Source: a virus. From it: a DNA stretch of 64,000 nucleotides. The notes under the pieces are model-generated. The model had not been told where the DNA came from. It saw only the letters and a program-made list of their open reading frames with translations, and searched no databases. The stretch lies in IMG/VR virus record IMGVR_UViG_3300005253_000166. The stretch is one strand, 5' to 3'. Position 1 is the first letter of the stretch; each line of letters starts with the position of its first letter. Made by a program: the position numbers and the translations under genes. Shown piece after piece: positions 13,289-52,100 of the stretch.

Positions 13289-14047
13289 ATGAAGAAAATA
13301 ATAATAGCTGGTTGTACAAGAACTAATTATATAGCATTTAATCTTATAAAGAAATATCCAGAATTTCTTTATGTTTTTGTGAATAAACAAGATACACCTA
13401 AACCTCAAAGAAAATATGAAAGTATTAAGAGAAATCTATGTTCAATATCTATTAATATGTTATTAAGACCAGATATTCTATTTAGGTTATGGTGCAAAGG
13501 AAGGAAAGAGAGAAAAGAAATGAAACATTTTGTAAAACCAAACTTATGTTGTCCCCCAAATTATTTAATCGTAAACAATTACAATAGCAAGGAATATGAA
13601 AACATACTTAAAGTTGAAGACCCTGATTTATTGATTGTTTTAGGCGGAATAATATTAAAACCTCAAATATTTAATAAAGGAAAACTTGGCTGTTTGAATA
13701 TACATTCTAGTCTTTTGCCTTTTGGGAGAGGAAGAGATGGTCCTTTTTGGGCTTTGTATTATAATAAACCTGCGGGGTTTACAGTACATTATATTACTGA
13801 ACAAGTGGATGCTGGAGATATAGTATTCCAGAAAGAAGTTGAAACCAAAGAAGGTGACACTCCATTAAGTTTGAGGAAAAGAATAGCTGATGAAATAATA
13901 AACTCTTTTCCAGAAATACTTGATAAATTTAAGGATGGAAAATCAGTAGGAAGAAAACAAGAATTTGGGTCATTATCTAATAAACATCCAACATTCAAGG
14001 ATAGATTTGAGTTGGAAATAACACCTTCCCAAAGTAAATCTGCCTGA
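13289..14047 (+). CDS. formyltransferase-family protein (PurN/Fmt/sugar N-formyltransferase fold)
   Basis: NIHSSLLPFGRGRDG (HxSLLPxxRG motif) and TVHYITEQVDAGDIVFQKEV match the Formyl_trans_N catalytic core. Confidence 0.6.
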   Translation: MKKIIIAGCTRTNYIAFNLIKKYPEFLYVFVNKQDTPKPQRKYESIKRNLCSISINMLLRPDILFRLWCKGRKERKEMKHFVKPNLCCPPNYLIVNNYNSKEYENILKVEDPDLLIVLGGIILKPQIFNKGKLGCLNIHSSLLPFGRGRDGPFWALYYNKPAGFTVHYITEQVDAGDIVFQKEVETKEGDTPLSLRKRIADEIINSFPEILDKFKDGKSVGRKQEFGSLSNKHPTFKDRFELEITPSQSKSA

Positions 14048-18240: not shown

Positions 18241-19314
18241 TTAGGTTTTGTCTTTGCCTATGAGTTTTTCTTCGTAGTTGGATATTGTTGTTGTTGAAAC
18301 TCCCATTAATCTTGCTAACCTAGATTTATTAGCCGTGGGGTATTTTTCTTTCATTAATCTGTATTGAACTATTTTATCCTTTGTTTCAGGATTGGTAAAT
18401 TGTAGGAGAATGGTTTGAATAAAGTCAAATGCTTGTTCAAAATATGAAGAATCATCAATCTGGATTTCCTTGAGTTTCTTTGTTTCTTTATATATATTGT
18501 TGGTTTTTAAATAATTATATATACCGTATCTAGTTATTTCAGATGATGTTCTTGCTATAAACCCATAATCGAGAGTATCAGATGGCCATAATTCATTGTC
18601 GTCTATGTATTCGTCATATTTAGTTTGATAGTCGCTGAATACTTTTGTTGGTATTATTACATTATCGATTTGTCTGGAGCAATCTTGTATATTAATATCT
18701 AATTCACCTCGTAATCCAGATTTGATATACTCTTTAGTTGGTTGTATGAATAAAGGTGAAAACCTACTTAGTAAAGCTTTACCTTTCTGAGAATTATCGT
18801 AGTTGGGATATTCCATAGCATAAGCAATACAACTAAAAATTGCTTTGATTCGTATTAAATTATCTTTGACTTCGTAATCTACGAAACCATGTCTATCTCT
18901 AAATCTATATGGTGATTTAACTTTAAAACCTAGTGACCTCGAGCTTTCTTGGTTTTCAAGAAGCGATAACATAGAATTTTGGCCGAAAGTTCCTACTGAA
19001 TTCCATTCATCAATTACAAATATTTTTCCACCTACATTGATTAATATCGAAGGGACGTACTCCCCATCTTTACTTATCGAACCTTCTATACTTGGTTTTG
19101 TAAAGTCGTCGTTGACAAATATATCATCTAATGCTATTTTACGTAATTGTTGGGTAATAGCAGATTTAAAGGTTCCGAATGGTGAAACGATTAGTAAGTG
19201 GTTTTGAGGGCGTAATCGGAACGGTCTCTTTTTTTGCTCGATTATAACGTTTTTTATCTTGCGCATCGAGAAGCAAGTTGATATTGCTGTGTCCAGATAG
19301 TCAATATTCGTCAT
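18241..19314 (-). CDS. MCM-like AAA+ ATPase (minimal helicase core) with C-terminal winged-helix
   Basis: Walker A-like SPFGTFKS, Walker B IFVIDEWN, MCM-type arginine-finger context ALLSRFSPLFI (cf. LLSRFDLIF), C-terminal HTH ANKSRLARLMGVSTTTISNYEE; only substantial minus-strand gene; first ATG at 19314 (track starts at upstream TTG 19335). Confidence 0.5.
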   Translation of the reverse strand: MTNIDYLDTAISTCFSMRKIKNVIIEQKKRPFRLRPQNHLLIVSPFGTFKSAITQQLRKIALDDIFVNDDFTKPSIEGSISKDGEYVPSILINVGGKIFVIDEWNSVGTFGQNSMLSLLENQESSRSLGFKVKSPYRFRDRHGFVDYEVKDNLIRIKAIFSCIAYAMEYPNYDNSQKGKALLSRFSPLFIQPTKEYIKSGLRGELDINIQDCSRQIDNVIIPTKVFSDYQTKYDEYIDDNELWPSDTLDYGFIARTSSEITRYGIYNYLKTNNIYKETKKLKEIQIDDSSYFEQAFDFIQTILLQFTNPETKDKIVQYRLMKEKYPTANKSRLARLMGVSTTTISNYEEKLIGKDKT

Positions 19315-19330
19315 GTGTGTACCTCTAAAC

Positions 19331-19570
19331 GACAAACTCTCCGAGTTTGTTTTTATCTCCCAAAGGAGATAACTATAGAAGAAAATGATACATTATTTAA
19401 CAATTTATTCAAATTTATAAACTTTTCGTTGACCTTGGTATCCATGGTAAACAAGGTCAACATAAACTTTATAAACTTGAACGTTTTTGTTATAGTTAAC
19501 GCGATGTGTAAAGCGTTAAAAAAGCCTAAAACACTACAGGCGAGTGTTTATCTCCTTTAGGAGATAATTC
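19331..19570. promoter_or_regulatory. origin-like / divergent promoter region: palindromes TATCTCC-N4-GGAGATA x2 (19353-19370, 19549-19566) symmetrically flanking an AT-rich core, with GTTGACCTTG-N14-CAAGGTCAAC (19428-19461) bracketed by direct repeats TTTATAAACTT (19414-19424, 19468-19478)
   Basis: read directly from sequence; located between the minus-strand MCM-like gene and plus-strand genes. Confidence 0.5.
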
Positions 19571-19619
19571 GCATTTTTTCTCGAGGTGATTTTAAGGCAA
19601 TGCATGGAGGTGCATATAT

Positions 19620-21549: not shown

Positions 21550-21954
21550 ATGAAACTAAGTACAAGGGTATTTTTTGAGGCAGCGCATAGATTGTCAGAT
21601 TATGAAGGCAAGTGTAAAAGGTTACATGGGCATAATTGGATAGTTGACGTAGATATAGATACAGATAGAAAATTAGACAAAACTGGATTTATAGTGGATT
21701 TTGGTATTATAAAGGATATTGCTAAAAAGTTTGACCATATAATAGTGATGAAAGATACTGATGAGAATAGGAAATATTTAGAAAGTGTTCCAGAAGATTG
21801 GGTTCTATGGGTTAGTTTTAATCCGACTTGTGAGCATTTTGCAGAGTACTTCAGGAATGAAATTAGTAAACAGTGTAAGTTGCAACGTGGAGATGTGTCA
21901 ATTAAGGTTTATGAAAATTATAAACCAGAAAGGAAGTCTTACGCAGAAATATAA
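21550..21954 (+). CDS. queD: 6-carboxy-5,6,7,8-tetrahydropterin synthase QueD
   Basis: C-x3-HGH motif 'CKRLHGHNW', PTPS-fold length 134 aa; strong SD agaggaggt. Confidence 0.8.
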   Translation: MKLSTRVFFEAAHRLSDYEGKCKRLHGHNWIVDVDIDTDRKLDKTGFIVDFGIIKDIAKKFDHIIVMKDTDENRKYLESVPEDWVLWVSFNPTCEHFAEYFRNEISKQCKLQRGDVSIKVYENYKPERKSYAEI

Positions 21955-21975
21955 TTTTTTATGGGGTAATGTATA

Positions 21976-22179
21976 ATGTTCAAGGACAAAAAACAATTTT
22001 GCAGGTTTGCTGTTAAGTTTAATTCGCTTCCTTTGAAAGTTAAGCAAGCATTAGAACAAGAGTTTATTATCAAAGCAAAACAGTATTGTCGTCGTGAAGG
22101 TTTTACTCCTGATGAAGTTGTTATTACTATGGTTAAAGGTGATGATATTTCATTTTCGTTTATTGCTACTTTGAAATGA
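21976..22179 (+). CDS. hypothetical protein
   Basis: ORF within que cluster. Confidence 0.35.
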   Translation: MFKDKKQFCRFAVKFNSLPLKVKQALEQEFIIKAKQYCRREGFTPDEVVITMVKGDDISFSFIATLK

Positions 22180-22197
22180 GAGTCAGAGGTTCATATA

Positions 22198-22476
22198 ATG
22201 AAACTAGGACATTTATTTTATGCTGCACCTTTAAAACTATTTAAAGAGATAGCTAACTCAAACGGAGAAGTTATTTACGCTGCGTTAGCTGGAAGAACTG
22301 TTAATGTCTCATATGCCTATACTTCAAAGATAGTAAGGGAATTTGAAAAGCTTGGTTTGATTAAGAGCATTAGAGAATGGGGTAAAATACGTATCAAATT
22401 AAAAATTACACCATATGGAGAGCAGGTGTGGGAGCATCTTAACTTTATAATGGGAAGATTAGAAAATGGAGACTGA
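22198..22476 (+). CDS. winged-helix DNA-binding protein (putative transcription regulator)
   Basis: HTH-like 'AGRTVNVSYAYTSKIVREFEKLGLI'. Confidence 0.4.
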   Translation: MKLGHLFYAAPLKLFKEIANSNGEVIYAALAGRTVNVSYAYTSKIVREFEKLGLIKSIREWGKIRIKLKITPYGEQVWEHLNFIMGRLENGD

Positions 22477-22600
22477 TAAAAGACAATATAAAAAGAGACA
22501 TTGTAAGTGTGGTAACCTTTTAGTTTCGATAAGAGAGGTTACAGAGGAAAAATGTGACCATTGTCTTACGTTTAATAAGTAATTTTTAGGGTGAAATAAA

Positions 22601-23881
22601 ATGAAAATTAGTGAAGCTTATGTTTTTGGACGATGGCTTGGCGATGGTACCAAAGAGTCTTCTAGTTTAGAAATAGCTCGTTCTGAGTCGCGTATTGATG
22701 AAATGGAGACGATTGCTAATATGATACATAAACCTTTTTGTCATACTAACTCTAGTTGTACTAGGTTTCAAGATGCTTACAAGTTAAAAAAAGAATTTTA
22801 TAGGATATACTCAATTATTATCAATCAAGATGTTAAATTACTATTTAATATAAAAGAGTCTTTTGCTATTATTGCAGGGTTCTTAGAATCGGATGGGAGT
22901 ATTGATAATCATTCCAAAAACAAAATTAAAATAGTTTTGCATAATAATGATAAGAATCTTTTATATTTCCTACAGAATTTATTAAAGAATGCAGGTATTA
23001 TTTGCTATATTAAGGAGTCTTATGGTTTAAAAACTAATTACGGTCGAGACAAATGTTGTAGACTGCACATTAATAATAATCTTTGCTTATATTACTTATT
23101 TCATATGCTATTGCCTTATTTATTATCTAAAGATAAGAAGAATCGTATTAATGATTGGTTAAAATTCTATGATGATTATCATCAAAGTTTAAAATTGAAT
23201 TTTTCGGAAAAGTTTATTAGTATCGAAGGTGAAGGTCGTGACATGGGAAGATTAAAGCTTTTTTTGAGGGTACGTGGCTGTCCATTTTCGTGTGGCTATT
23301 GTGATACCAAATATTCGATTGGTTCTAGAGGTATGTCTAATTATAAAGCTCCTACTTTAAGGCAGATAATTAATGATGTAAGAAATTTTGGGTATTTCAG
23401 TGAAATAGAATTTACAGGAGGCTCACCAGAGTGGTTTCCTCAAAAAATAGGGTATTTATTAGTTTATTTCAAAATACATTTTAACAGTAGGATAACAATG
23501 CAATGTAGTGGTGGTATATATAGTGAAAAAAACCAAGCGTTATTTACTTTATCGGATATTAATAGTTTTGATTGTAAAGACCTACGGGAAAAAGTACCTT
23601 TTATTATCGATAAGCTTTATGTAAGAGAAAAAGATGAAATCAAGTTTTTGGTTTGCGATGATTTATCTTATCAGTTCGTAAAGAATAAGCTTAAGGAATT
23701 TAAAGATTTGAAATGCCAATTTATAATTTCTGTCGTTACTGAAGAAAATAAAGATGATTTGGAAAGTTTGAATTTGCTTATCGATAAAATAAAGCATGAT
23801 AATGATTTTCCCAAGCAAAATGTTAGATTAATGGTTCGTGAGCATATTTTATTATATGGAAAAGGTAAACGAGGGATATAA
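22601..23881 (+). CDS. queE: LAGLIDADG homing-endonuclease domain fused N-terminally to 7-carboxy-7-deazaguanine synthase QueE (radical SAM)
   Basis: two LAGLIDADG-type motifs 'FGRWLGDGT' and 'IAGFLESDGSI' in residues 1-190; QueE begins 'FISIEGEGRDMGRLKLFLRVRGCPFSCGYCDTKYS' (Cx3Cx2C); stop codons immediately upstream exclude an intein. Confidence 0.75.
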   Translation: MKISEAYVFGRWLGDGTKESSSLEIARSESRIDEMETIANMIHKPFCHTNSSCTRFQDAYKLKKEFYRIYSIIINQDVKLLFNIKESFAIIAGFLESDGSIDNHSKNKIKIVLHNNDKNLLYFLQNLLKNAGIICYIKESYGLKTNYGRDKCCRLHINNNLCLYYLFHMLLPYLLSKDKKNRINDWLKFYDDYHQSLKLNFSEKFISIEGEGRDMGRLKLFLRVRGCPFSCGYCDTKYSIGSRGMSNYKAPTLRQIINDVRNFGYFSEIEFTGGSPEWFPQKIGYLLVYFKIHFNSRITMQCSGGIYSEKNQALFTLSDINSFDCKDLREKVPFIIDKLYVREKDEIKFLVCDDLSYQFVKNKLKEFKDLKCQFIISVVTEENKDDLESLNLLIDKIKHDNDFPKQNVRLMVREHILLYGKGKRGI

Positions 23882-24109
23882 ATGATAAAACTTCCTAAAA
23901 GAATTCGAATCATAGAAGCAAGTGATATACGTTTGACTGAGAAGCGAGACCAAATCTATATTGAAAAAGAATCTGATTTTCTTTGGTATTTAAAGAGGTA
24001 TAACATCGAAGCAATTCTCAAACTCAAAAAACTTTATTATGTTTTTGAGGATACTGATACTATCATGATATATGACGATAGTAAGGCGTCGCCAGAGGTA
24101 CCACAATGA
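23882..24109 (+). CDS. hypothetical protein
   Basis: ATGA coupling both sides. Confidence 0.35.
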   Translation: MIKLPKRIRIIEASDIRLTEKRDQIYIEKESDFLWYLKRYNIEAILKLKKLYYVFEDTDTIMIYDDSKASPEVPQ

Positions 24110-24768
24110 AAAAAGAAAAGGCAGTATTAATTTTGTCAGGAGGGGTTGATTCGACTACTCTACTATACAATTTATTAGACCAAGATTACGAAGTTTATGC
24201 TGTTAGTTTTGATTACGGTCAGAAACACGCTAAAGAATTATTATGTGCAGCTGAAATATGTAGGAAGCTTAGTGTAAACCATAAGATTCTAAATTTATCG
24301 GTGTTGAATGATGTCGCTCCTAGTGCATTGACGCGAAAAGATATAGAAGTTCCAGAAGGTCATTACAAAGAAGAGTCTATGAAAGCAACAATTGTCCCTA
24401 ATCGTAATATGGTGATGCTTTCTTTAGCAACAGCTTATGCTATTAGTATCAAAGCAACAAAATTGTTTTATGGGGCGCATATTGGAGACCATGAAATTTA
24501 TCCGGATTGCAGGAAAGAATTTATTTATGCTATGAAGCAAGCTATTAAGCTATGTGATTGGCATCAAGTTGAATTAAAAGCTCCATTCAGACATCTAACC
24601 AAGGTGAGTGTTGTAAATCTTGGTAAAACGTTAAATGTTGATTATTCACTTACATATTCGTGTTATAAAGGGAGTGAGAAGGCTTGTGGCAAGTGTGGGA
24701 CTTGTGTTGAACGTCTCGAAGCATTTAAGATAGCTGGAGTAAAAGACCCTATTGAATATGAAAAATAA
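24106..24768 (+). CDS. queC: 7-cyano-7-deazaguanine synthase QueC
   Basis: PP-loop 'LILSGGVDSTT', C-terminal zinc site 'CGKCGTCVERLEAF'. Confidence 0.85.
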   Translation: MKKEKAVLILSGGVDSTTLLYNLLDQDYEVYAVSFDYGQKHAKELLCAAEICRKLSVNHKILNLSVLNDVAPSALTRKDIEVPEGHYKEESMKATIVPNRNMVMLSLATAYAISIKATKLFYGAHIGDHEIYPDCRKEFIYAMKQAIKLCDWHQVELKAPFRHLTKVSVVNLGKTLNVDYSLTYSCYKGSEKACGKCGTCVERLEAFKIAGVKDPIEYEK

Positions 24769-25108
24769 GAAAATAGCGATTGGTATAATAATACTTATGG
24801 GATTAACTTTACTAACAATATTTATTTACGATTACAACATAACTTACGGTGATTACAATGAATTGGTACTTGAATACAATTCCTTATTGAATGATTATAA
24901 CGAGTCATTAAATGCACCATGCAAAGGATGTGAGATGTGTGGTGCTGATATCAAATTTGGTGTAACTGGAATTTATCGGGCCAATGACTATTATTGTGTT
25001 TATGTTGAGAATAGAACAGAGGCTGAGATTAACAGAACAGAGATTCATGAACCGTGTCATCATTTTGTATATATGGACTATGAACACTTCTGCCTAGGCA
25101 AAGCCTAG
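24752..25108 (+). CDS. membrane-anchored Cys/His-containing protein
   Basis: N-terminal TM, CKGCEMCG..HEPCHH. Confidence 0.4.
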   Translation: MNMKNKKIAIGIIILMGLTLLTIFIYDYNITYGDYNELVLEYNSLLNDYNESLNAPCKGCEMCGADIKFGVTGIYRANDYYCVYVENRTEAEINRTEIHEPCHHFVYMDYEHFCLGKA

Positions 25109-25143
25109 GTATCTGGCCTTCTGTCTAGGAGAGCGTAATAAAA

Positions 25144-25635
25144 ATGTCAAATAAAAAGATTATAACGTGGAAACAGTTTCGAGAGCTTGTAGTACAACTC
25201 GAAAAGAAGATTGAATGGAATTCAAATATTAATGATATTTATGGGATTCCGAGAGGTGGGCAATATGTCGCTTTAATGCTTAGCGAAATTTCAGGAATCC
25301 CTTTAACTGACCATATTGATTCGAGGACATTTGTAGTTGACGATATTGCTGATTCTGGGAGTACTCTAGCCAGATTCCATGGAAAGGGGTGTGGAGTTGC
25401 TACTCTCCACGTTAAACCTCGTTCCATGGTTAAACCCCATTACTGGGTTGAGGAAACAGAGGATTATATTATTTATCCATATGAAGCTGCTGCAAATGAA
25501 GATGTTGAAGATAATATTCGTCGTATTTTACAGTTTTTAGGAGTTTATAAAGTGACTGATGGACAATTACTTTCGTTAAAACATAGTGTTCTTAAATTTG
25601 TTAGAGATTGGGGTGTTATAAATGGTAAAGTATAA
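25144..25635 (+). CDS. type I phosphoribosyltransferase-domain protein
   Basis: PRPP-binding motif 'VVDDIADSGSTL'; C-terminal tail 'EDNIRRILQFLGV' duplicates the FolE N-terminus at amino-acid level. Confidence 0.6.
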   Translation: MSNKKIITWKQFRELVVQLEKKIEWNSNINDIYGIPRGGQYVALMLSEISGIPLTDHIDSRTFVVDDIADSGSTLARFHGKGCGVATLHVKPRSMVKPHYWVEETEDYIIYPYEAAANEDVEDNIRRILQFLGVYKVTDGQLLSLKHSVLKFVRDWGVINGKV

Positions 25636-26857
25636 GGTTGATGAAAATTTTTTTGATAAGTGGTCAGGTGATATGGCTTATATTCTAGGGTTATGGTATG
25701 CAGATGGTTGGGCTATTGATACAAAACAAGGTTGCCAAGTTTGTATTGAATTGAAAGATAAATGTTTGTTAGAACAAGTTAAAATGAGAATGGGTGATGT
25801 CCCTATTAAAGAATTATGTAGGACTATTAATAGTAAACAAGTTCATTCATATTTATTGAGGTATTGTCGTAACGGGTTGTACAAGAGTCTGGTTTCTAGG
25901 GGGTATAATAATAAAGATGTTTTTCCTAGAATACCTGGTGAATACATTTCATATTTTATGAGAGGTTATTTTGATGGGGATGGAAGCTTACAGTTGCGTG
26001 AAAATGATAGAACGTTGCGCTTTTCGATATATGGTCCTAAACCTTTGTTAACTGAATATAGTGGTTTGTTGGCTAAGAAATTACAATTAAGTCGGGTTGC
26101 CCCTGTATTTAAAACTCAAGCAACACATGGTTTTAATTACGCCAAGATTACAGACGTTGCTAAAATTTTTCGATATTTATATTCAGATAATAGCATTGGG
26201 TTGTGTCGTAAATGTAGGTTGTTTGGTGAATGGTTTGAGACTGTCGGTTCAAAAGAACTTTTATCGAAAAGTACAATCCAAGATAATATAAGACGAATCC
26301 TTGAGCTTATAGGTGAAAATCCAAACAGAGAAGGTATCAAATATACTCCTCATAGAGTTGAAAGATTATATAATAATCTATTTTATGGATATAGAAAGAA
26401 ATTAAAAGTGATGAATGAAGAGGAGCGTAATACAGGATTTGATGAAAATATTATTCCTATCACTGTGTTTAAAAACGAGAGTGATGAGATGTTAATCAGG
26501 AAAGTCAATGCAGTGACGTTTTGCGAGCATCATATTGCAGTTACTCCATTAGAGGTTTGGGTTGGTATTATTCCTGATGAGACTCTAATGGGTATGAATA
26601 AGATTGATAAAGTAGTAAAGTATTTTGCTGCTCGTTTGCAAATCCAAGAACGTATGACGAATCAAGTTGCAGATTGGATTAGTGATAATATTGAGCCAAA
26701 AGGTGTAATAGTTGTAATCAAAGGTATTCATTATTGTGCTGAGTTGCAGGGTGATAGTGGAAATTTTATTACGAGCGCAGTTAGAGGTATATTTTTACAC
26801 CCAGATGCTAATAAGGACCCTAAATCCGAATTTTTAACTTTAATAAGGGAAAAATGA
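25622..26857 (+). CDS. folE: LAGLIDADG homing-endonuclease domain fused N-terminally to GTP cyclohydrolase I (FolE)
   Basis: 'ILGLWYADGWA' and 'FMRGYFDGDGSL' LAGLIDADG motifs; FolE part 'IRRILELIGENPNREGIKYTPHRVERLY...FCEHHIAV...IHYCAELQGD'. Confidence 0.75.
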   Translation: MVKYKVDENFFDKWSGDMAYILGLWYADGWAIDTKQGCQVCIELKDKCLLEQVKMRMGDVPIKELCRTINSKQVHSYLLRYCRNGLYKSLVSRGYNNKDVFPRIPGEYISYFMRGYFDGDGSLQLRENDRTLRFSIYGPKPLLTEYSGLLAKKLQLSRVAPVFKTQATHGFNYAKITDVAKIFRYLYSDNSIGLCRKCRLFGEWFETVGSKELLSKSTIQDNIRRILELIGENPNREGIKYTPHRVERLYNNLFYGYRKKLKVMNEEERNTGFDENIIPITVFKNESDEMLIRKVNAVTFCEHHIAVTPLEVWVGIIPDETLMGMNKIDKVVKYFAARLQIQERMTNQVADWISDNIEPKGVIVVIKGIHYCAELQGDSGNFITSAVRGIFLHPDANKDPKSEFLTLIREK

Positions 26858-27066
26858 AAGAAGAAGAATTTTTGAAAGAACATCCGAGTTTGAAGGGAAA
26901 ACTGTATTATTCAAGTATAGGAGAACCGCCACGAAGTGATTGGTGGACATTTATTAAATATATTCACGAAACACAATTAGACAAACAGAAAGTTAAGGAA
27001 GTTATTGAAAGGTTGGCATTTAAAGAATTGGCTATTGAATTAAAAAAGGAGTTAGGATTAGAATGA
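26854..27066 (+). CDS. hypothetical protein
   Basis: ORF, coupled. Confidence 0.35.
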   Translation: MKEEEFLKEHPSLKGKLYYSSIGEPPRSDWWTFIKYIHETQLDKQKVKEVIERLAFKELAIELKKELGLE

Positions 27067-27650
27067 ACAACAAAAATGATGGGCAAATGAAAGGCCAAAT
27101 TATTGCAGAACTAAACAAAGTCAAACGTGAAGGTATGCAAGACCTCATTGAATGGCTCACGGGGAGTGATTTCTTTATAGCGCCTTGTTCAGGCAGGTAT
27201 CATAATGCGTTTGATGGTGGGTTGGCTGAGCATAGTTGGAATGTTTTGAAGTTGCTAAGAGAAAAGAATCATAGGTATGCTTTAAATTTATCAGCAGAGA
27301 CTATTATAATTTGTGCTCTTTTACACGATTTATGTAAAGTGAATTTTTATGTAAAGCATGTAAGGCTTAGTTATTTGAATAATGAACCAGAATACTATTA
27401 TAAGATTGAGGAGAAAGCGTTGCCTTGTGGTCATGGAGAGAAGAGCGCTTTGTTAATCCAAAAATTTATGAAGTTAAGTGACCAAGAGATTGTTATGATA
27501 CGTTGGCATATGGGTAAATATGGTGACGATTTTAATATGTATCACGGGCCTGCGTTTTACAAGGCATTAGAACTTTACCCAGCTGCACTAGCTTTACATA
27601 CAGCTGATTTTGAAGCTGCAACATTCTTAGAGACTCATGGTGTGAAATGA
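27063..27650 (+). CDS. HD-domain phosphohydrolase
   Basis: H..HD motif 'ICALLHDLCK', upstream 'RYHNAFDGGLAEHSWN'. Confidence 0.5.
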   Translation: MNNKNDGQMKGQIIAELNKVKREGMQDLIEWLTGSDFFIAPCSGRYHNAFDGGLAEHSWNVLKLLREKNHRYALNLSAETIIICALLHDLCKVNFYVKHVRLSYLNNEPEYYYKIEEKALPCGHGEKSALLIQKFMKLSDQEIVMIRWHMGKYGDDFNMYHGPAFYKALELYPAALALHTADFEAATFLETHGVK

Positions 27651-27780
27651 AAATACTTGATAAACTAAGTCAAATAAGAATTGAATTTACGTCTAGTGAA
27701 GTTGACGCTCTCAAAAAGATATTGAGTAATCATAGTGGAGATTACGAGAAATTTGCGATGGAATTATACGATTTGATAAA

Positions 27781-28089
27781 ATGAAGATTACGATAAAACA
27801 GGGGTTCATTGAGTTTCGAAGGGTCGATAAACCAAAATATAGTCTATTTGAACTTGAGAGGGTAGAAGTTAATGAACAGTATCAAAGAAGGGGGCATGGT
27901 TGCAAACTTTTTAATATGATGATTGAAAAGATAAAACCATATAGAAAATTGTTTTGTACTACTCATGCTTCAAATAAAATAGCTCATAGATTTTATGAGC
28001 ATATGGGTATGAAGATGGAAGCAGTTTTACCGAATCATTATTATAGGGGTGAACCAGAGATAGTGTATAGTCAATACCCGGTGTCGTGA
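27781..28089 (+). CDS. small GNAT-like acetyltransferase
   Basis: 'EQYQRRGHGCKLF' acetyl-CoA binding-like motif. Confidence 0.35.
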   Translation: MKITIKQGFIEFRRVDKPKYSLFELERVEVNEQYQRRGHGCKLFNMMIEKIKPYRKLFCTTHASNKIAHRFYEHMGMKMEAVLPNHYYRGEPEIVYSQYPVS

Positions 28090-28433
28090 GAATGGTAAGC
28101 AACGTGGAGAAGGGAAAAAGAGTTGAAAAGAAAGCGCGTGATGCACTTGAAGAGCTTGGATGGAAAATCTTGTTTAAGAGTATTAGGACGAGGTTTCAGA
28201 GTCAAGACTTTGCTGGGCTTTTCGATATCGTCGCAGCTAGAGATAGGAGTCGTCGATTGGTTAGTGTTAAAACTTTTGTAAGTAATGCAAGGCATGTAGA
28301 GCATAAAAGGGATTTGCAAAATTTTTCAAACAAACATTCTCTATTAAATGAGAAGTGCGAGCTTTGGTTATGGCACCAAGAGACCTCTAGTACTTCTAGT
28401 GCTGGAGGTACGTGGGAGATGATTACGTTTTAA
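28086..28433 (+). CDS. Hjc-like PD-(D/E)xK nuclease (Holliday-junction resolvase-like)
   Basis: 'KGKRVEKKARDALEELGWKILF'..'FDIVAAR'..'LVSVKT' parallels Hjc E..D..(E/S)VK. Confidence 0.4.
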   Translation: MRMVSNVEKGKRVEKKARDALEELGWKILFKSIRTRFQSQDFAGLFDIVAARDRSRRLVSVKTFVSNARHVEHKRDLQNFSNKHSLLNEKCELWLWHQETSSTSSAGGTWEMITF

Positions 28434-28449
28434 TGAAGGTGAGGTTAGA

Positions 28450-28647
28450 ATGGTAAAAGGAACTTTGAAACAGATTAAGAAGGACTATTTGGATAAGTCA
28501 ATTCCAATAAAGGATATATTAGATTGTGAAGATGGTTGCCCTTTAGATAGCAATAGTTGCTATGAAAAGAATAAAGGGTTTGATGATTGTGATGAAATAA
28601 ATGAACAAATACTAGCAGAAAAATTAATTAAGATTGGATTAATTTAA
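28450..28647 (+). CDS. hypothetical Cys-containing protein
   Basis: ORF. Confidence 0.3.
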   Translation: MVKGTLKQIKKDYLDKSIPIKDILDCEDGCPLDSNSCYEKNKGFDDCDEINEQILAEKLIKIGLI

Positions 28648-28810
28648 AGATGGCAATCAAAAAAGATAGAAAAGGATTAGTGAATATAAGTACTTTGAAT
28701 AAAGTAGAGGAGAAAATATTTATCAAATTCCTCGAGATGGAGAAAGAACGTCACGAAGATGATATAAGGCATATAGAGGAGACAATTGCACGTATTCGTT
28801 TGAAGGAAAA

Positions 28811-29200
28811 ATGAACTACTTTCAGGGGATATTCGTTTGTGCTGTTACCGCATTAATAGTTACGTTGCTAGGTCAAATACCATATCAATTCAACGACAAA
28901 AACAAACTTAGGGAATTAAATAAAGAAAAGAAGAAGATAAAAGGAATTTTAAAAAAGGATAATGTTATCAACAACGACGAACTTTATGAAAAAAATCAAA
29001 AACAATTGATTAGAGCGAACTGGGAAGTAAGTCGTCGTATCATGTTTCCATTAATTATTCAAATGGCGATTATTTTTTACGCACTAAATAGATTAAGAAT
29101 ACTTAACCCTATGTTCCTGTGGTTGGTTTGGTATATAGGATTTGCAATGCTATTCAGTAGAATGTGGAAAAAGGTATTTGTGTTATTAGTAGGGGGTTAA
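28811..29200 (+). CDS. membrane protein
   Basis: TM helices at both ends. Confidence 0.4.
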   Translation: MNYFQGIFVCAVTALIVTLLGQIPYQFNDKNKLRELNKEKKKIKGILKKDNVINNDELYEKNQKQLIRANWEVSRRIMFPLIIQMAIIFYALNRLRILNPMFLWLVWYIGFAMLFSRMWKKVFVLLVGG

Positions 29201-29201
29201 G

Positions 29202-29528
29202 ATGTTAGATACATACAAGCAAAAAAGATTAGCAAAACAATTGGCGCCTATTATCAAACGTTGCAAAGAGATTGATAAGATATTTGATACTGATTTAGAA
29301 ATTAGCCAAGCAAAGGTATTAGGTATAGAGCTTGCTGATTTATTTATAGAAGTTGTTCAAATTTGTGGTAAGTATGGCTTTCGTAAGTCTAAAATGTATA
29401 CACAGGTTTGCAATGGATTGAAAGAAAGACTAAAAGCTACTAAAGATGAAGATTTATTAAGTGATAGTGTAAACTACTTACTCAGTAATTTTAATTCGTT
29501 GATTGTTACAATGGGTATAGCAATCTAA
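29202..29528 (+). CDS. hypothetical protein
   Basis: ORF. Confidence 0.4.
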   Translation: MLDTYKQKRLAKQLAPIIKRCKEIDKIFDTDLEISQAKVLGIELADLFIEVVQICGKYGFRKSKMYTQVCNGLKERLKATKDEDLLSDSVNYLLSNFNSLIVTMGIAI

Positions 29529-29598
29529 AAAAGGTGCGGATAAATCCGCAACTTCATCACCTTCAGGTGATAAAGATATAACAATCTAATATCTAATA

Positions 29599-29820
29599 TT
29601 GAAAATGAAATACAAAACGTTTGCAATGAATTATGAGCACTTGAAATTTAATGTAGAAGAATCTATCTCGGTTGAAGAACATACTAATTATATAGACATT
29701 AAGAAAAATTATAAATACGGTTATATTGGGGGTTTTCATTCCTTAGATATGACGAATGCAACTGCAATAAAATTGCGAGACTTGCTTAACAAAATATTTC
29801 CTGTCGAGGGTGGAAAATGA
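29599..29820 (+). CDS. hypothetical protein
   Basis: ORF. Confidence 0.35.
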   Translation: MKMKYKTFAMNYEHLKFNVEESISVEEHTNYIDIKKNYKYGYIGGFHSLDMTNATAIKLRDLLNKIFPVEGGK

Positions 29821-30074
29821 CAAAACTAAACTATTTTTGTAAAAGGTGTAGGCATGCATGGTTCCTTTTAATGGGATGTTATACTCCGCAAAAGTCGATT
29901 CCTAAAGCGCATCGTGAAAATCGTGATGCATATGTTGAAGTAGTAGAAGATGAACATGGTAATGTTCTTAAAACCCGTTACACGAGGGAAGCTGGACATT
30001 GTTATTGTGGTACGGCTTTTCCTGTAGAGATTGAGGGACCGAAAGGTCTTTCAATGCTAGGAGTGAAGGTGTAA
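29817..30074 (+). CDS. zinc-binding protein (CKRCRH...HCYCG) immediately upstream of dpdA-like gene
   Basis: ORF, ATGA coupled. Confidence 0.4.
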   Translation: MTKLNYFCKRCRHAWFLLMGCYTPQKSIPKAHRENRDAYVEVVEDEHGNVLKTRYTREAGHCYCGTAFPVEIEGPKGLSMLGVKV

Positions 30075-30076
30075 AA

Positions 30077-30772
30077 ATGCGGTATGCACATATCACGCCA
30101 CTCAGAAACTTTAAACTTTCGGATACCTATAATGATATGCATCTATTATTATATCACTGGGGGCTCAAGAGTGAAAAGTACAGTAGGAAATGCAGACAAA
30201 GTAAAGTATACAAAATGGCTGATAACAGTCAATATGAATTAAGAAAAGAAATAGACTATGACGATTACTTAAGATGGGCGCAATGGGTAAAAGCAGACGA
30301 AATAATTGCTCCTGACGTTATGTACAATTTCAAGAAGACAAAGAAATTAATCGAGGATTTTATTCCAAGGGTTCCGAAACAAATTGCTGGTCATAAAGTT
30401 AAAATTCAAGGAGTTGTTTGTGGCAAGACTATAGAAGAATTGAAGCGATGTTATGATTGGCTTTGTAATAACGAAGGGATTGACGTGATTGGTATTAGTA
30501 AACACGGATGTGTTCCATATAAAAAGGAAGATTATTTTCAATCGCGCCGAGATTTTTTAGAATCGGTATTCGGCACTGAGAAGCCTATTCACTTGCTCGG
30601 TGTAAATGATTTCAAAGATTTTTTGACAGATATACCAACTTTGAATGTTCGTTCAATTGATGGGAAGTTCCTTGCCAAAGTTGCAAATTTCGACAAGAAA
30701 ATTGATTTACATACTCATATTAATCGCAATCATCTACTAAGTTTATTCAATTTGTTTGAGCATATTAAATAA
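30077..30772 (+). CDS. dpdA: tRNA-guanine transglycosylase-fold protein, DpdA-like (7-deazaguanine DNA transglycosylase candidate)
   Basis: 'KPIHLLGVNDFKDFL' resembles the TGT 'PRYLMGVGxPxDL' motif followed ~17 aa later by an Asp-containing segment; short TGT-like length typical of phage DpdA; located in preQ0 cluster. Confidence 0.45.
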   Translation: MRYAHITPLRNFKLSDTYNDMHLLLYHWGLKSEKYSRKCRQSKVYKMADNSQYELRKEIDYDDYLRWAQWVKADEIIAPDVMYNFKKTKKLIEDFIPRVPKQIAGHKVKIQGVVCGKTIEELKRCYDWLCNNEGIDVIGISKHGCVPYKKEDYFQSRRDFLESVFGTEKPIHLLGVNDFKDFLTDIPTLNVRSIDGKFLAKVANFDKKIDLHTHINRNHLLSLFNLFEHIK

Positions 30773-31574: not shown

Positions 31575-32429
31575 ATGAGGTATAAAAAAGCAAGTGTCAG
31601 CGTTGTTGCTGGTACGACGATTGCAATAGTAATTTTTATTGTTGCAATTATTGTGCTGTTGATAGGCGTTGATGTGGTTGACGCAAATAGATTAGGGGTG
31701 AAAGTACGGTTTGGGAATGTACTGGGTGCAATGGGGCCTGGTATACAGTGGACGGGGTTGTTTACTAACGTGTATCAATATGATATGCGTATAAGGAAGT
31801 CGACAATACAATTAGAGGGTGATTTTAATGCACCTGACAAAGAAGGTCAGCCCATTTACGCGACCATTAGCGTAAACTATAAGGTAAGGCGCGACCTGAA
31901 TACAGTAATTAATCTGTATAAGAACGTTGGTACAGATAGGTATATAGCAGATATCTTGAATATTGAACCTATTATCACAGAAGGGTTTAAACAGGCAACG
32001 GTTAAGTACGAGGCATTGGAAATCTTGGATAAGAGACAAGAAGTAAAGGAATTGGCTAGGGCTAATATTAAGGCTAACTTCCCAAAAGACTATTTTGATA
32101 TAGTGGATATTGTTATAGGTAATATTCATTATTCAAAGCAATTCCAAGATGCAATCGATTCGAAGAAGACTGCTATACAATTAGCAGAGAAGGCAGAGAA
32201 CGATTTGGAGAGAGTTAAGTTTGAGCAGCAACAAGAAATTGAAAAGTATAAAGCAGAGGCTAAAAAACTTGAACTACAGAAAAAACAAGTTACTGCATTA
32301 TTGAACCAGCAGAAGTGGATTGAGACATGGGATGGCAAGTTACCTACCTATATGATAACTACACCAGATGCAGCAAATCTATTACTGCCATTACCAGGGA
32401 CAATAGGTGGTGAAAGTGCTCTTACTTAG
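31575..32429 (+). CDS. SPFH/band-7 (prohibitin/stomatin-like) membrane protein
   Basis: N-terminal TM, SPFH-like core, C-terminal coiled-coil (KFEQQQEIEKYKAEAKKLELQKKQ). Confidence 0.55.
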   Translation: MRYKKASVSVVAGTTIAIVIFIVAIIVLLIGVDVVDANRLGVKVRFGNVLGAMGPGIQWTGLFTNVYQYDMRIRKSTIQLEGDFNAPDKEGQPIYATISVNYKVRRDLNTVINLYKNVGTDRYIADILNIEPIITEGFKQATVKYEALEILDKRQEVKELARANIKANFPKDYFDIVDIVIGNIHYSKQFQDAIDSKKTAIQLAEKAENDLERVKFEQQQEIEKYKAEAKKLELQKKQVTALLNQQKWIETWDGKLPTYMITTPDAANLLLPLPGTIGGESALT

Positions 32430-48842: not shown

Positions 48843-48916
48843 GGCAATTTGGGGAAGGGGTTGTTTCCACTGGCATCATGAGCCAGAGAAGGTTGGTTCG
48901 AGTCCAACAATTGCCA
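48843..48916 (+). tRNA. tRNA-Met (anticodon CAT)
   Basis: hand-folded cloverleaf: acceptor GGCAATT/AATTGCC 7 bp, U8, D-stem GGGA/TTCC, anticodon stem CTGGC/GCCAG with loop ATCATGA (U33, CAT, R37), 5-nt variable loop, T-arm GTTGG-TTCGAGT-CCAAC, discriminator A. Confidence 0.8.
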
Positions 48917-49140: not shown

Positions 49141-52100
49141 ATGAAAATGATTACATCTATAATGTTAATCTTATGTGGAACGATTTTGTTAGGTAGCATG
49201 GTATACTTTAGTGGTAATAAGCCATTGTTAGAAGGAGGTTTTAAAGAAATGGACACTAGAGTTTATGCAGGTAAAGGTTCCCCTATATCAGGAGATGAAG
49301 AGATTAAAATAAACCCTTACAAAACAAGATACACAGAAGATTACAAAGTTCTCAAAAAAACAGGAAACGAAAGTCTATTTGATGTTTCTTTTAACAAAAC
49401 ATCTGTTTTAGTTGCAAACTATACAGTTAACGATACTTATCCTAATGGCACTAATTATACTAGAAGAATAGTAAAATACAGAGAAGATACTATAATTTGT
49501 TTAGAGGCTGGATGGATTAATAAAAAGGTCTTGACTTATTTTTATAATTTAAACGGTAATATTACTGGTGTAAACAAAAACTATACTTATTCTGTTCCTT
49601 CAAAACTTTCTTTCTATAAAACCAATTCATTGTCTAAACAATCTGATTTATCTATGACACAAGCCAATGGACAGATTACAACAAGTCCATCTAATCCAAA
49701 GAAATTCTGCTATCAAGCAAATCCAGAGCAAGACTTTTATTTAAAGTTTGGAGATAACTCTGTAATAGTCATTCAAGATTCAAATATAGTTACAGACTCT
49801 TTATTAAGAAATGTAACAGCAGAAGGCAACTTCACACATCTTACTATAGATGATGACCCTGATGTTTATTTAGAGTTTGATGGTGATAATGATTATGTTA
49901 GTGTGGCTGATGATGACAGCTTGGATTTATCTACTAAAGCTACTTGGAGTCTTTGGGTAAAACGAGCCCAATATACTGATTTGGGAGGGCTTTTGAATAA
50001 ATATTTTTCTGCTGGTGGAAGGAGGTCATATACTTTGTTAGAAGCTAGTGGTGATAACACTGAAATTGGATTGTTTCTTTCTCCGAATGGTGCTAGTCCT
50101 GATGTATATTATACAACTAATGATTGTGCTCCTGTTGATGACGAATGGACATATATAGCAGTTACCTATGATGAAGGTTCAGCAATCTATTATAAGAATG
50201 GTGTGCAGTGTGATACTGATTCTTCTTCAGTAACCTCAATCCATCCTTCTTCTGAGCCCCTTTTGATAGGTTCTTCTTATGATAGTGACTTCAACGGCTC
50301 AATAGATGAAGTCCGTATTTATAATAGAAGCCTAAATGTTTCAGAAATTATAGAAATCTACAATTCTGGCAGGGTAGCAAATTCTTCATTACCTTCTGAT
50401 AATTTAACTTTATGGTTAAAGATGGATGAAGGTGTAGGAATATCAGCAGATGATTCAAGTGGAGAAGGAAATGACGGGACTTTAGTTGGTAATCCTACTT
50501 GGAGTACATGGGGATTGGGAGATAACTTAGTCGGCTATTGGAATTTTGATGGTGATAAAGTAAATACTCCATTAGCAACTTCTTATGATTTTACAAAGGA
50601 AGATAATGATGGGACAGGAGTTGCAGATGCTTTGGTTAATTCTACTGATTGTATGACTGGTTATGGAAATTGTTATCAGGGGGATGGTGTTGGCGATTTT
50701 ATCAATTTAGGAGACCCTGCATCATTGAGAAACTTCGGAAACTTAACCATTTCTGGGTGGTTTAATACAAGGGACAATACAACAAACTTTCAGGTGCTTA
50801 TTAGTAGACATACTACTACACAAGTATGGTTTATAAGGACAGACCCAGATAACTTTCAGTTTGATATTGAAACCGATGGGAGTCATCCACAAGTAAATAG
50901 CATTACACGTATTAAAAATAACATCTGGTATCATGTTGCTGGAGTGTATAATGGAACTGGCATGGGATTATATATAAACGGCGTTTTAGACAATTCGGGA
51001 GCAGCTTCAGGAACTATTGATTCTACCGCACAGACTGTTAGGATTGGAAGTAGAAATGGAGGTATGTTTATGGATGGTATGATAGACGAAGTAATGGTTT
51101 TCAATGCTTCTTTATCATCCGCACAAATCTTAGAAATCTACAACAACCAATCAGCAAGATTCAAAACAGAAGGAACACAAAAAGTAAGAGCAGTCAAAGT
51201 AACTAACGGAAGTACTTGGGATAATGGTGGAGATAATCGAGTTAACATAACTGTTGATTTTCAAGCAAATAAAAACTCAAATATCTCAGCAAGGATTGGA
51301 CAGATTAATCTTAGTGTTAATAATTCTGATTTATTATTTTATCTACCTTTTGAATGGAACGGTGCAGAAGATATTACTGGAAACGGATTTGATGGATTAT
51401 TGATTGGAGAAACTTTTATTAACGGTACAGGTTTAAATGACACAAGGGGAGCCCAATTTCAAGGGATGGATGATTTGATGAATTTAACTAACTCTGAAAG
51501 TTTAATTTTTCCAACAGGGGGATTCACTTTAGCGGTTTGGTTCAAAACTTTAGGGGGTGACTTAACAGCAAACCTTTTTGGTAAATATCCTACTACTGGA
51601 ATTGCAGGAAGAATCGCTTGTTTTATTTCAGGTGGAGATATTCTTTGCACTTTAGATGATGGGGCTTTACAGGTTGTTGCAGGGGGAGCTGTCAATGATG
51701 ATGAATGGCATCATATAGTATTATCTGTAAATGATACTAATCTAGCAGGATTTTTAGATGGAAATGTTTTTGCAGTAGATAGTCACGATAATACTTTGGT
51801 TACTAATACTGCAAGTTGGTCTTTAAGCTCAGCTATCCCAAATGCTCAATTTTCTTTGAATGGTTCAATAGATGAAGTAATACTTTTCAACAGAAGCTTA
51901 ACAACTCAAGAGGTTGTAACCCTTTATACAAGGTCAGCACAACAATACCACGAAGCATATTATACAGAATATCAAAACGTAACAGGAAACCCAACTAACT
52001 TTACAATAAATACAGAAGCAGACTTCTTATTTCCAGACTTTAAGTTTCATTCAGGTGCTGACCAGTTCTATACTCCTATAATTAACGGAAGTATGACTTT

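Follow-up and report, generated by a model that had tools for sequence, protein, structure and literature searches.

Modification of DNA with 7-deazaguanines is an established anti-restriction strategy of viruses, and the described systems differ in their transglycosylases and in the bases that they contain. The DpdA3 subfamily was defined from the phages phiST, CP220, and immuto, in all three of which guanine is completely (100%) replaced (PMC10516641); the bases are dDG, dADG, and fdPreQ1, respectively. Bacterial siphoviruses of the Queuovirinae (such as PaMx25, NP1, and VpKK5) combine FolE, QueD, QueE, and either QueC or Gat-QueC with a DpdA1 protein of about 310 residues, and have about 16-30% of their G modified in specific motifs. 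In phage CAjan, modification does not occur without DpdA (PMC6884629). Clusters of this kind have also been described in archaeal tailed viruses (PMC8651126, PMC6884629). In haloarchaeal tailed viruses (HVTV-1, Druskaviridae), FolE, QueD, QueE, and QueC are clustered, viruses of the HVTV-1 type encode a 386-residue DpdA4, and HVTV-1 itself has a QueF-like gene and dPreQ1. Here, we analyze a 7-deazaguanine cluster located between positions 21,550 and 30,772 of the IMG/VR virus record IMGVR_UViG_3300005253_000166, a stretch of 64,000 nucleotides that we refer to as the window.

The window has a G+C content of 34% and is 88% coding, with nearly all genes on the plus strand. The cluster is, in our assessment, probably a virus-encoded DNA-modification module of the DpdA3 type, which would swap 7-cyano-7-deazaguanine (preQ0) for guanine in the viral DNA. 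Its core consists of the following open reading frames (ORFs):

21550-21954, plus strand: QueD, 6-carboxytetrahydropterin synthase (Pfam PTPS, 3.6e-23), with the CxxxHGH motif
22601-23881, plus strand: LAGLIDADG domain (about 22601-23170) fused in frame to QueE, radical-SAM CDG synthase (about 23171-23881), both from Pfam
24106-24768, plus strand: QueC, preQ0 synthase of 220 residues (Pfam QueC, 5.8e-71)
25144-25635, plus strand: purine phosphoribosyltransferase (PRT), with the PRT domain at about 25144-25490 and, at about 25483-25635, a tail that is a remnant of the FolE N-terminus
25622-26857, plus strand: LAGLIDADG domain (about 25622-26250) fused in frame to FolE, GTP cyclohydrolase I (about 26276-26857), both from Pfam
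30077-30772, plus strand: DpdA3-family 7-deazaguanine transglycosylase, a minimal tRNA-guanine transglycosylase (TGT) barrel of 231 residues, from structure and profile comparison

The sequence-only reading of this DNA had recognized a short TGT-fold protein at 30077-30772, based on the segment KPIHLLGVNDF, which is present in the translated ORF. Pfam did not return a TGT match for it, and the lack of any significant TGT or DpdA match was what that reading had named as counting against it; the fold was instead borne out by structure search and profile comparison. An AlphaFold (AF2) model of the protein reached a pLDDT of 95.4 and a pTM of 0.91, and the top 50 matches listed by Foldseek against the Protein Data Bank (PDB) were all TGT or ArcTGT proteins (E 1.2e-7 to 7e-5, probability 1.0, TMq 0.56-0.69). 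The top structural match in BFVD was a 259-residue protein of the Cellulophaga phage phiST (M4SLA5; E 4.7e-13, TM 0.78), which, judged by its length and organism, appears to be CGPG_00065. For profile comparison, 33 homologues were aligned, in which D49-N50, P79-D80, G116, R157, H172-x-L-G175, and R192-S193-x-D195 are invariant. The best profile match in the PDB was the bacterial DNA-guanine transglycosylase DpdA (7ui4), a weak hit (E 0.29) in which the HLLG and SIDS segments are aligned. As in Tgt, ArcTGT, and this bacterial DpdA of the Dpd system, the protein forms a (beta/alpha)8 barrel with an alignable nucleophile aspartate and HLLG-type strand, but it shares only 11-14% identity with them and lacks both the Zn-binding subdomain and the C-terminal domains. 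In the weak alignment with Tgt of E. coli, D195 falls on the nucleophile Asp264 and KPIHLLG on KPRYLMG, while D49-N50-S51 aligns with the DSG motif of DpdA1; D195 and D49 are thus the predicted catalytic residues.

Within the fold, the protein belongs to the DpdA3 family, a subfamily that the sequence-only reading had not specified, because its family profile aligns with proteins of phages from which DpdA3 was defined (PMC10516641): the protein YP_010114477 of Flavobacterium phage immuto, annotated as DpdA (hhalign, 99.5%, E 8e-23), and gp056 of Campylobacter phage CP220 (99.4%, E 1e-21). Homology to founding members was also found by tblastn (E 6e-8 and 4e-4). CP220 gp056 and phiST M4SLA5 were equated with the published DpdA3 proteins by means of the text of that study and the immuto annotation (PMC10516641). 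A tblastn search of 50,697 phage records gave four groups of matches: the immuto phages, whose matching gene carries the annotation 'DNA guanine transglycosylase, DpdA'; Campylobacter phages of the CP220 group, with 14 records; BSP7-like phages of Bacillus; and Weizmannia phage Youna2. The protein also matches PHROG 19058 (2.3e-5). The next-closest subfamily is DpdA4, to which the alignment is weaker (HVTV1_69; hhalign, 62%, E 7.5e-5, 123 columns), with HLLG and SIDG aligned. The DpdA3-like family is large: a HMMER search of 1.84 billion representatives at 50% identity, in which terms the family is counted here, found 5,298 members, 4,273 of them with E <= 1e-10. Scans with the DpdA alignment of 185,579 species genomes and of IMG/VR found no relatives.

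Two other assignments of this protein were rejected. DpdA4 was ruled out since DUF6610, the Pfam family of DpdA4, scored 16.6 bits against a cut-off of 27 and hhalign to HVTV1_69 reached just 62%, so that the two are related yet distinct. A canonical DpdA1, DpdA2, or bacterial DpdA was ruled out by the lack of a PF01702 match and of a PADLOC DpdA match, by the length of 231 residues, and by the alignment with DpdA1 of PaMx25 (hhalign probability 1.2%); the Queuovirinae transglycosylase thus shows no significant profile match to the family found here.

The fold by itself would also be compatible with RNA as a target. If the virus boosted preQ0 synthesis and the small transglycosylase modified host or viral tRNA with an archaeosine or queuosine precursor, translation would be the beneficiary, and preQ0 would be the very substrate of ArcTGT if the host is archaeal. 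ARAGORN reports a tRNA-Met (CAT) at 48843-48916 of the window. This gene scored under the gathering score of the Rfam tRNA model, and Rfam found nothing in the window, so that it was not confirmed and could represent a tRNA-like element that is degenerate or particular to the virus. The closest homologues of the transglycosylase, moreover, come from phages with fully modified DNA (PMC10516641), and the 231-residue protein is without the Zn subdomain and the C-terminal and PUA domains that are used for tRNA. We therefore consider a tRNA target very unlikely and DNA, rather than RNA, the most likely target of this DpdA3-type enzyme.

The four synthesis enzymes that the sequence-only reading had named were all detected by HMM search. 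The expected motifs are present in the translated ORFs, namely CKRLHGHNW in QueD, CPFSCGYC in QueE, SGGVDS and CGKCGTC in QueC, and CEHH in FolE. All four pass the Pfam thresholds with their catalytic motifs present, and the predicted pathway from GTP to preQ0 is complete in the window. QueD (TIGR03367 of NCBIfam, 1.5e-21, under the equivalog cut-off) is 55% identical to its orthologue on the related contig L009. In the QueE ORF, LAGLIDADG_3 (8.8e-11) occupies residues 88-160, and Radical_SAM and Fer4_12 occupy residues 209-388; its best NCBIfam matches are four models, all of QueE (1.3e-20), which span residues 200-425. QueC scores 223.8 bits against the TIGR00364 equivalog (cut-off 150.3) and is 60% and 51% identical to the proteins of L009 and of a second related contig, L003. 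In the FolE ORF, LAGLIDADG_3 matches in two stretches (1.1e-9) and GTP_cyclohydroI (3.9e-41) at residues 219-408, where positions 1-178 of the 179 profile positions are covered.

From these components, the following pathway can be proposed. FolE would convert GTP to H2NTP, QueD would convert H2NTP to CPH4, QueE would form CDG from CPH4, and QueC would produce preQ0 from CDG. The 231-residue DpdA3 barrel, which is free of the C-terminal Zn and RNA-binding parts, would then exchange guanine in DNA for preQ0, yielding dPreQ0, and this base would shield the viral genome from restriction-type nucleases. The sequence-only reading had seen neither QueF nor Gat-QueC, and both observations held: tblastn of the window with QueF and DpdN of immuto and the QueF-like protein of HVTV-1 found nothing, Pfam found no such gene among the cluster ORFs, and it detects no amidotransferase (Gat) domain in the 220-residue QueC. 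DpdL- or DpdM-like genes did not turn up when the cluster ORFs were scanned with Pfam and PHROGs, although no search with DpdL or DpdM sequences was made. dPreQ0 is thus upheld as the default prediction for the final base, because no QueF, Gat-QueC, or DpdN was found and no DpdL or DpdM turned up. dADG is a possible alternative. By analogy with the DpdA3 phages, the extent of replacement could be high.

A formyltransferase had been suggested as a source of additional chemistry. The 252-residue product of the gene at 13289-14047 has a PurN/Fmt/ArnA-like N domain and lacks the C domain of Fmt. The gene is located 7.5 kb upstream of the cluster, to which it is not linked, and shows no tblastn similarity to DpdN, so that the suggestion was not sustained; as a candidate DpdN it was rejected on the same grounds and for want of a QueF.

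The association of the DpdA3-like gene with 7-deazaguanine metabolism recurs in related loci. L009 is collinear with positions 18.2-30.8 kb of the window and encodes a DpdA that is 66% identical. L003 has the order QueD-QueE-x-QueC-PRT-x-FolE-x-DpdA-PolB, with a DpdA that is 56% identical. Immuto shares not only the transglycosylase subfamily but also a similar gene order, in which QueD, QueE, a homologous PRT next to FolE, and a hydrolase precede DpdA3, and DpdN, a thymidylate-kinase-like gene, and QueF follow. Like the Queuovirinae, the window combines FolE, QueD, QueE, and QueC with a transglycosylase gene close to that of a DNA polymerase. In three other, bacterial-type tailed-phage lineages (L004/L005, L010, and L011), a DpdA3-like gene lies beside a transporter of the Vut_1/YhhQ family, whose members transport 7-deazaguanine precursors. 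The occurrence of DpdA3-like genes with genes for the synthesis or uptake of 7-deazaguanines in several independent contexts supports the function assigned to them. The neighbourhoods of DpdA3-like genes that were compared are:

L004/L005, 8988-10732
L010, 7829-10729
L011, 8791-10726
L001, 4868-7361
L002, 11998-14002

The neighbours of the DpdA3-like gene in the bacterial-type phages are Vut_1/YhhQ and either a P-loop kinase-like gene (AAA_28) or MazG. A 'thymidylate kinase' gene likewise adjoins DpdA3 in CP220 and immuto, and an HD-AAA protein is encoded in CP220 as well. Such repeated linkage to kinases could point to chemistry at the nucleotide level. The window itself differs from the DpdA3 phages in having no thymidylate-kinase-like gene beside DpdA3, and also in its predicted base, dPreQ0 in place of their fdPreQ1, dDG, or dADG, given that QueC is present and none of the tailoring genes turned up.

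The sequence-only reading had counted the phosphoribosyltransferase among the genes outside the canonical set. The gene is real; its standing as an extra was overturned, since it proved to be a conserved partner of FolE in the sister contig, in immuto, and in Queuovirinae phages. Sequence comparison identifies the protein as a type I purine PRT. Its best phmmer match in the PDB is the purine PRT of P. horikoshii (1vdm, 1.2e-9), followed by GpT-1 and GpT-2 of S. solfataricus, and the motifs GIPRGG and VVDDIADSGST (VDDIxDSGxT) are kept across all relatives. It is 36% identical to the PRT of immuto (E 2e-20), which, like the orthologue of L003, passes the Pfam Pribosyltran cut-off. A word-indexed homologue search returned five proteins. 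The phage database contained homologues in 34 records, and in all 34 the gene either adjoins or forms part of the folE gene in a 7-deazaguanine cluster; they comprise immuto, the Vibrio VpKK5 group, and Queuovirinae phages of Pseudomonas, Xanthomonas, Stenotrophomonas, and Variovorax. HVTV-1 is not among these 34 matches and in this respect differs from the window.

In several viruses, the PRT makes up the N-terminal part of a fusion protein with FolE, as in NP1 gp36 (297 residues), VpKK5 gp32 (300 residues), and L009 (309 residues); in the Queuovirinae, it is either fused to FolE or abuts it. Intact fusions are found at these positions of the sister contig (L009) and of the two cultured phages (L012 and L013):

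L009, 5902-6831
L012, 2399-3292
L013, 4004-4906

The fusions of NP1 and VpKK5 are annotated simply as 'GTP cyclohydrolase', and PaMx25 gp38 ('hypothetical') appears to be the PRT domain in a mis-called frame. Over 158 residues, the PRT ORF of the window can be aligned with the L009 fusion (58% identity), and the alignment extends through the first 40 or so residues of the FolE part. A DNA repeat joins 25508-25541 with 26280-26313, and the LAGLIDADG-FolE ORF starts 14 nucleotides before the stop of the PRT ORF. The form with PRT and tail is also found in other metagenomic proteins (P0078 and P0079). The analysis thus shows which five enzymes are encoded, that the transglycosylase has a TGT fold and is homologous to DpdA3, and that PRT and FolE are recurrently linked and fused.

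Key papers on these modification systems make no mention of a phosphoribosyltransferase. Because each exchange frees one guanine and uses one GTP-derived preQ0, guanine salvage is the most economical and most likely role of the protein, with guanine as the predicted substrate. A PRT next to FolE would convert the released guanine and phosphoribosyl pyrophosphate to GMP, which host kinases would return to GTP, the substrate of the pathway; withdrawal of guanine, a product of the exchange, would at the same time drive the reaction forward. We put forward only tentatively the full picture of an overlooked sixth component, a self-feeding salvage step that pulls the exchange to completion, here in the virus of an uncultured archaeon with a largely or wholly dPreQ0-substituted genome.

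The same genes could be arranged into a pre-replicative route, in which the PRT makes a preQ0 ribonucleotide from preQ0 and phosphoribosyl pyrophosphate, or DpdA3 swaps the base on a free (deoxy)nucleotide, the product is phosphorylated and then incorporated by the family B polymerase, and the HD hydrolase of the cluster depletes dGTP, as in Z-genome phages. The complete replacement in DpdA3 phages and the ADG nucleoside seen in CP220-infected cells (PMC10516641) would fit such a route, as would the small size of a barrel that is without the TGT Zn and C-terminal domains (231 versus about 375 residues). P-loop NMP-kinase-like genes lie beside DpdA3 in CP220, immuto, L004, and L010, with MazG in L011; in L003 and L011, the gene immediately after DpdA encodes a DNA polymerase; and the window cluster contains both an HD hydrolase and a PRT. 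However, homologues of the kinase, of MazG, and of a deoxyribosyltransferase were not found in the window, and the HD gene, a member of a generic phage family, has no counterpart in the closest relatives. The homologous PRT, furthermore, occurs as a FolE fusion in Queuovirinae phages with a DpdA1 transglycosylase, and modification in CAjan, a member of this group, is dpdA-dependent and motif-specific (PMC6884629, PMC7544227). Pre-replicative activation of preQ0 by the PRT is disfavoured because of this occurrence of the fusion in DpdA1 phages, and fusion to the first, GTP-consuming enzyme fits guanine recycling better than preQ0 activation. We thus judge the pre-replicative route improbable and retain exchange in DNA as the preferred reading.

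The QueE and FolE ORFs each start with a different double-motif LAGLIDADG domain, which the sequence-only reading had not noted and in which the motif aspartates are intact. Such a domain is absent from QueE of L003 (242 residues) and L009 (200 residues), from FolE of L003 (174 residues), and from the FolE part of the L009 fusion; LAGLIDADG domains on QueE and FolE also distinguish the window from the DpdA3 phages. At the LAGLIDADG-QueE junction, there is no in-frame ATG before the QueE domain, and no QueE remnant was found upstream of the fusion. The domains represent homing-endonuclease ORFs that continue in frame into the downstream enzymes. Inteins were rejected as an explanation, since LAGLIDADG stands at the start of the ORF, leaving no N-extein, and no HN-[CST] junction precedes the enzyme domains. 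Compared with L009, QueE (32% identity) and FolE (39%) are the most divergent proteins, whereas QueD, QueC, PRT, and DpdA have identities of 55-66%; this pattern suggests that the endonucleases drove an exchange of both genes for copies of foreign origin. Most likely, cassettes linked to the endonucleases took the place of the resident QueE and FolE and broke up an ancestral PRT-FolE fusion: two LAGLIDADG homing endonucleases would have invaded the module and would now be translated as N-terminal extensions of the two enzymes. A homing endonuclease is also found within the cluster of NP1. In a related virus, the PolB homologue P0035 (1326 residues, 61% identical) carries a LAGLIDADG intein (Intein_splicing and LAGLIDADG_3), and homing elements appear to be common in this viral lineage.

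Large N-terminal domains on two of the four enzymes and a FolE fragment left on the PRT ORF might also be taken as signs of decay, in which invasion inactivated QueE, FolE, or both, and preQ0 either is not made or is supplied by the host. Yet the FolE profile (1-178/179) and the QueE models are covered end to end, the catalytic motifs CEHH and CX3CX2C are intact, and the cluster ORFs are all open and tightly packed. The architecture of PRT plus tail is kept in P0078 and P0079, which implies selection after the split. A decaying cluster hence seems scarcely probable, and we continue to read the module as functional.

Several points weigh against a functional DpdA3 module that inserts preQ0. The transglycosylase has no Pfam TGT (PF01702) match at E <= 0.01 and no TGT or DpdA match in NCBIfam, in PADLOC, or by phmmer against the PDB, and its hhalign match to E. 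coli Tgt is weak (about 1%), as is that to DpdA1. The activity of DpdA3 has never been reconstituted; the authors of the defining study report failed tests in E. coli and doubt that DpdA3 inserts preQ0 in phiST and CP220 (PMC10516641). QueD, QueE, and FolE match the right NCBIfam models but score under the equivalog cut-offs, and the PRT of the window is under the Pfam Pribosyltran cut-off (16.6 versus 26.3 bits), its guanine substrate being a prediction. The LAGLIDADG extensions of about 190-210 residues could impair QueE or the assembly of the FolE decamer.

The interval contains further genes, some of which are specific to the window:

21976-22179 and 22198-22476, plus strand: two small conserved ORFs, the second a possible winged helix-turn-helix regulator, with L009 orthologues (67% and 27% identity)
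27063-28433, plus strand: window-specific insert with an HD protein (27063-27650), a small ORF (27647-27784), a GNAT protein (27781-28089), and a nuclease-like gene (28086-28433)
28650-30074, plus strand: small conserved ORFs between the insert and DpdA3, with L009 orthologues

The first pair (21976-22476) has no Pfam match and a weak match to a PHROG of transcription regulators (0.0013). The ORFs downstream of the insert have neither Pfam nor PHROG matches; their identities to L009 are 78% (28650-28814), 61% (28811-29200), 41% (29202-29528), and 42% (29817-30074). HD and GNAT are real by Pfam (1.4e-7 and 5.6e-10), while the nuclease, previously called Hjc-like, has just sub-threshold matches of the PD-(D/E)xK type (XisH, 0.007; UPF0102, 0.45), and the Hjc-like label is tentative. 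The HD protein has its homologues in Lak phages, in Dp-1 (gp21), and in Faecalibacterium phages, all of a generic family of phage HD proteins, and a single-sequence AlphaFold model of it reached a pLDDT of 36. The region 26854-28647, with HD, GNAT, the nuclease-like gene, and two small ORFs, has no counterparts in L009 or L003, the two closest relatives. The three genes were rejected as components of the module on this basis, in agreement with their earlier placement outside the canonical set; the block is a lineage-specific insert. Just downstream of DpdA3, an SPFH/Band-7 membrane-scaffold protein (31575-32429) is encoded, which is kept in L009 (10897-12207).

The host of the virus is less clearly indicated. 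A sequence identical (100%) to the transglycosylase of 30077-30772 is recorded as 'hypothetical protein LCGC14_0363640 [marine sediment metagenome]', on a contig of 70,324 bases; we take the prefix LCGC14 to denote the Loki's Castle sediment metagenome (Arctic deep-sea sediment). Two further genes flank the cluster:

18241-19335, minus strand: MCM-like AAA+ protein with a C-terminal helix-turn-helix, Walker A SPFGTFKS and Walker B VIDEW, 75% identical in L009
33330-35735, plus strand: family B DNA polymerase (PolB), where the replication module starts (Pfam DNA_pol_B and exonuclease domain)

The only matches of PolB among the 50,697 phage and virus records are 21 haloarchaeal tailed viruses (about 24% identity), a group that also includes viruses with clustered synthesis genes and DpdA4; immuto, in contrast, has a PolA. 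The best NCBIfam model is that of archaeal PolB, and the sole named distant homologue comes from a metagenome-assembled genome of Nanoarchaeota. A scan of the 185,579 species genomes with the PolB alignment found no relatives. Of the earlier impression that replication proteins and promoters look archaeal, the part on replication is suggested by the relatives and the best model of PolB, with no host link from the genome scans, and the part on promoters found no backing: TTTAWATA occurs 35 times in the window (31 +/- 6 in shuffles) and sigma-70-like sites 66 times (61 +/- 7), both at shuffle level. GGAGGT/GAGGTG ribosome-binding sites are present at most genes and do not discriminate between bacteria and archaea. 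Among the scanned ORFs (nearly all of at least 100 residues), Pfam and PHROGs revealed no terminase, portal, or capsid protein, and the lack of recognizable ones is unusual for a bacterial tailed phage. Overall, an archaeal host is plausible, and we lean slightly towards it.

The MCM-like gene is the only large gene on the minus strand, and the divergent intergenic region of 285 bp next to it (19336-19619) may hold an origin or promoters. Between 36000 and 64000, giant ORFs (1457, 1413, 867, and 1447 residues) match only lectin and Ig-like domains, and the one at 49141-53382 has four Laminin_G_3 repeats. The coding strand of the window (1-64000) shows a very strong excess of G over C (21.2% versus 12.9%), with a skew that is +0.45 at the left end and has dropped to about 0 by 60-64 kb. 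The third codon positions of early genes show G3 of 0.15-0.22 and C3 of 0.05-0.10, whereas in late genes G3 and C3 are about equal. The skew is common to relatives, including L003 and L009 (+0.26 to +0.38), and its gradient suggests strand-asymmetric mutation, for example, through time spent single-stranded during replication.

Against the background of known viral systems, the presence of a 7-deazaguanine cluster is in itself no surprise. The core system is already known, and the findings are modestly novel in two respects. First, the conserved partnership of PRT and FolE is brought out, which suggests a guanine-recycling step. Second, homing endonucleases remodel the pathway, apparently swapping in foreign copies of QueE and FolE. 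The window combines a DpdA3-type enzyme and a full set of genes for preQ0 synthesis, with no tailoring enzymes found, in a sediment virus that is highly divergent and may be archaeal, and its cluster is thereby a clean candidate for establishing what DpdA3 actually inserts. Given the size of the DpdA3-like family, a functional result would apply widely, and a dPreQ0-substituted virus of an archaeal host, if true, would extend DpdA3 beyond bacterial phages.

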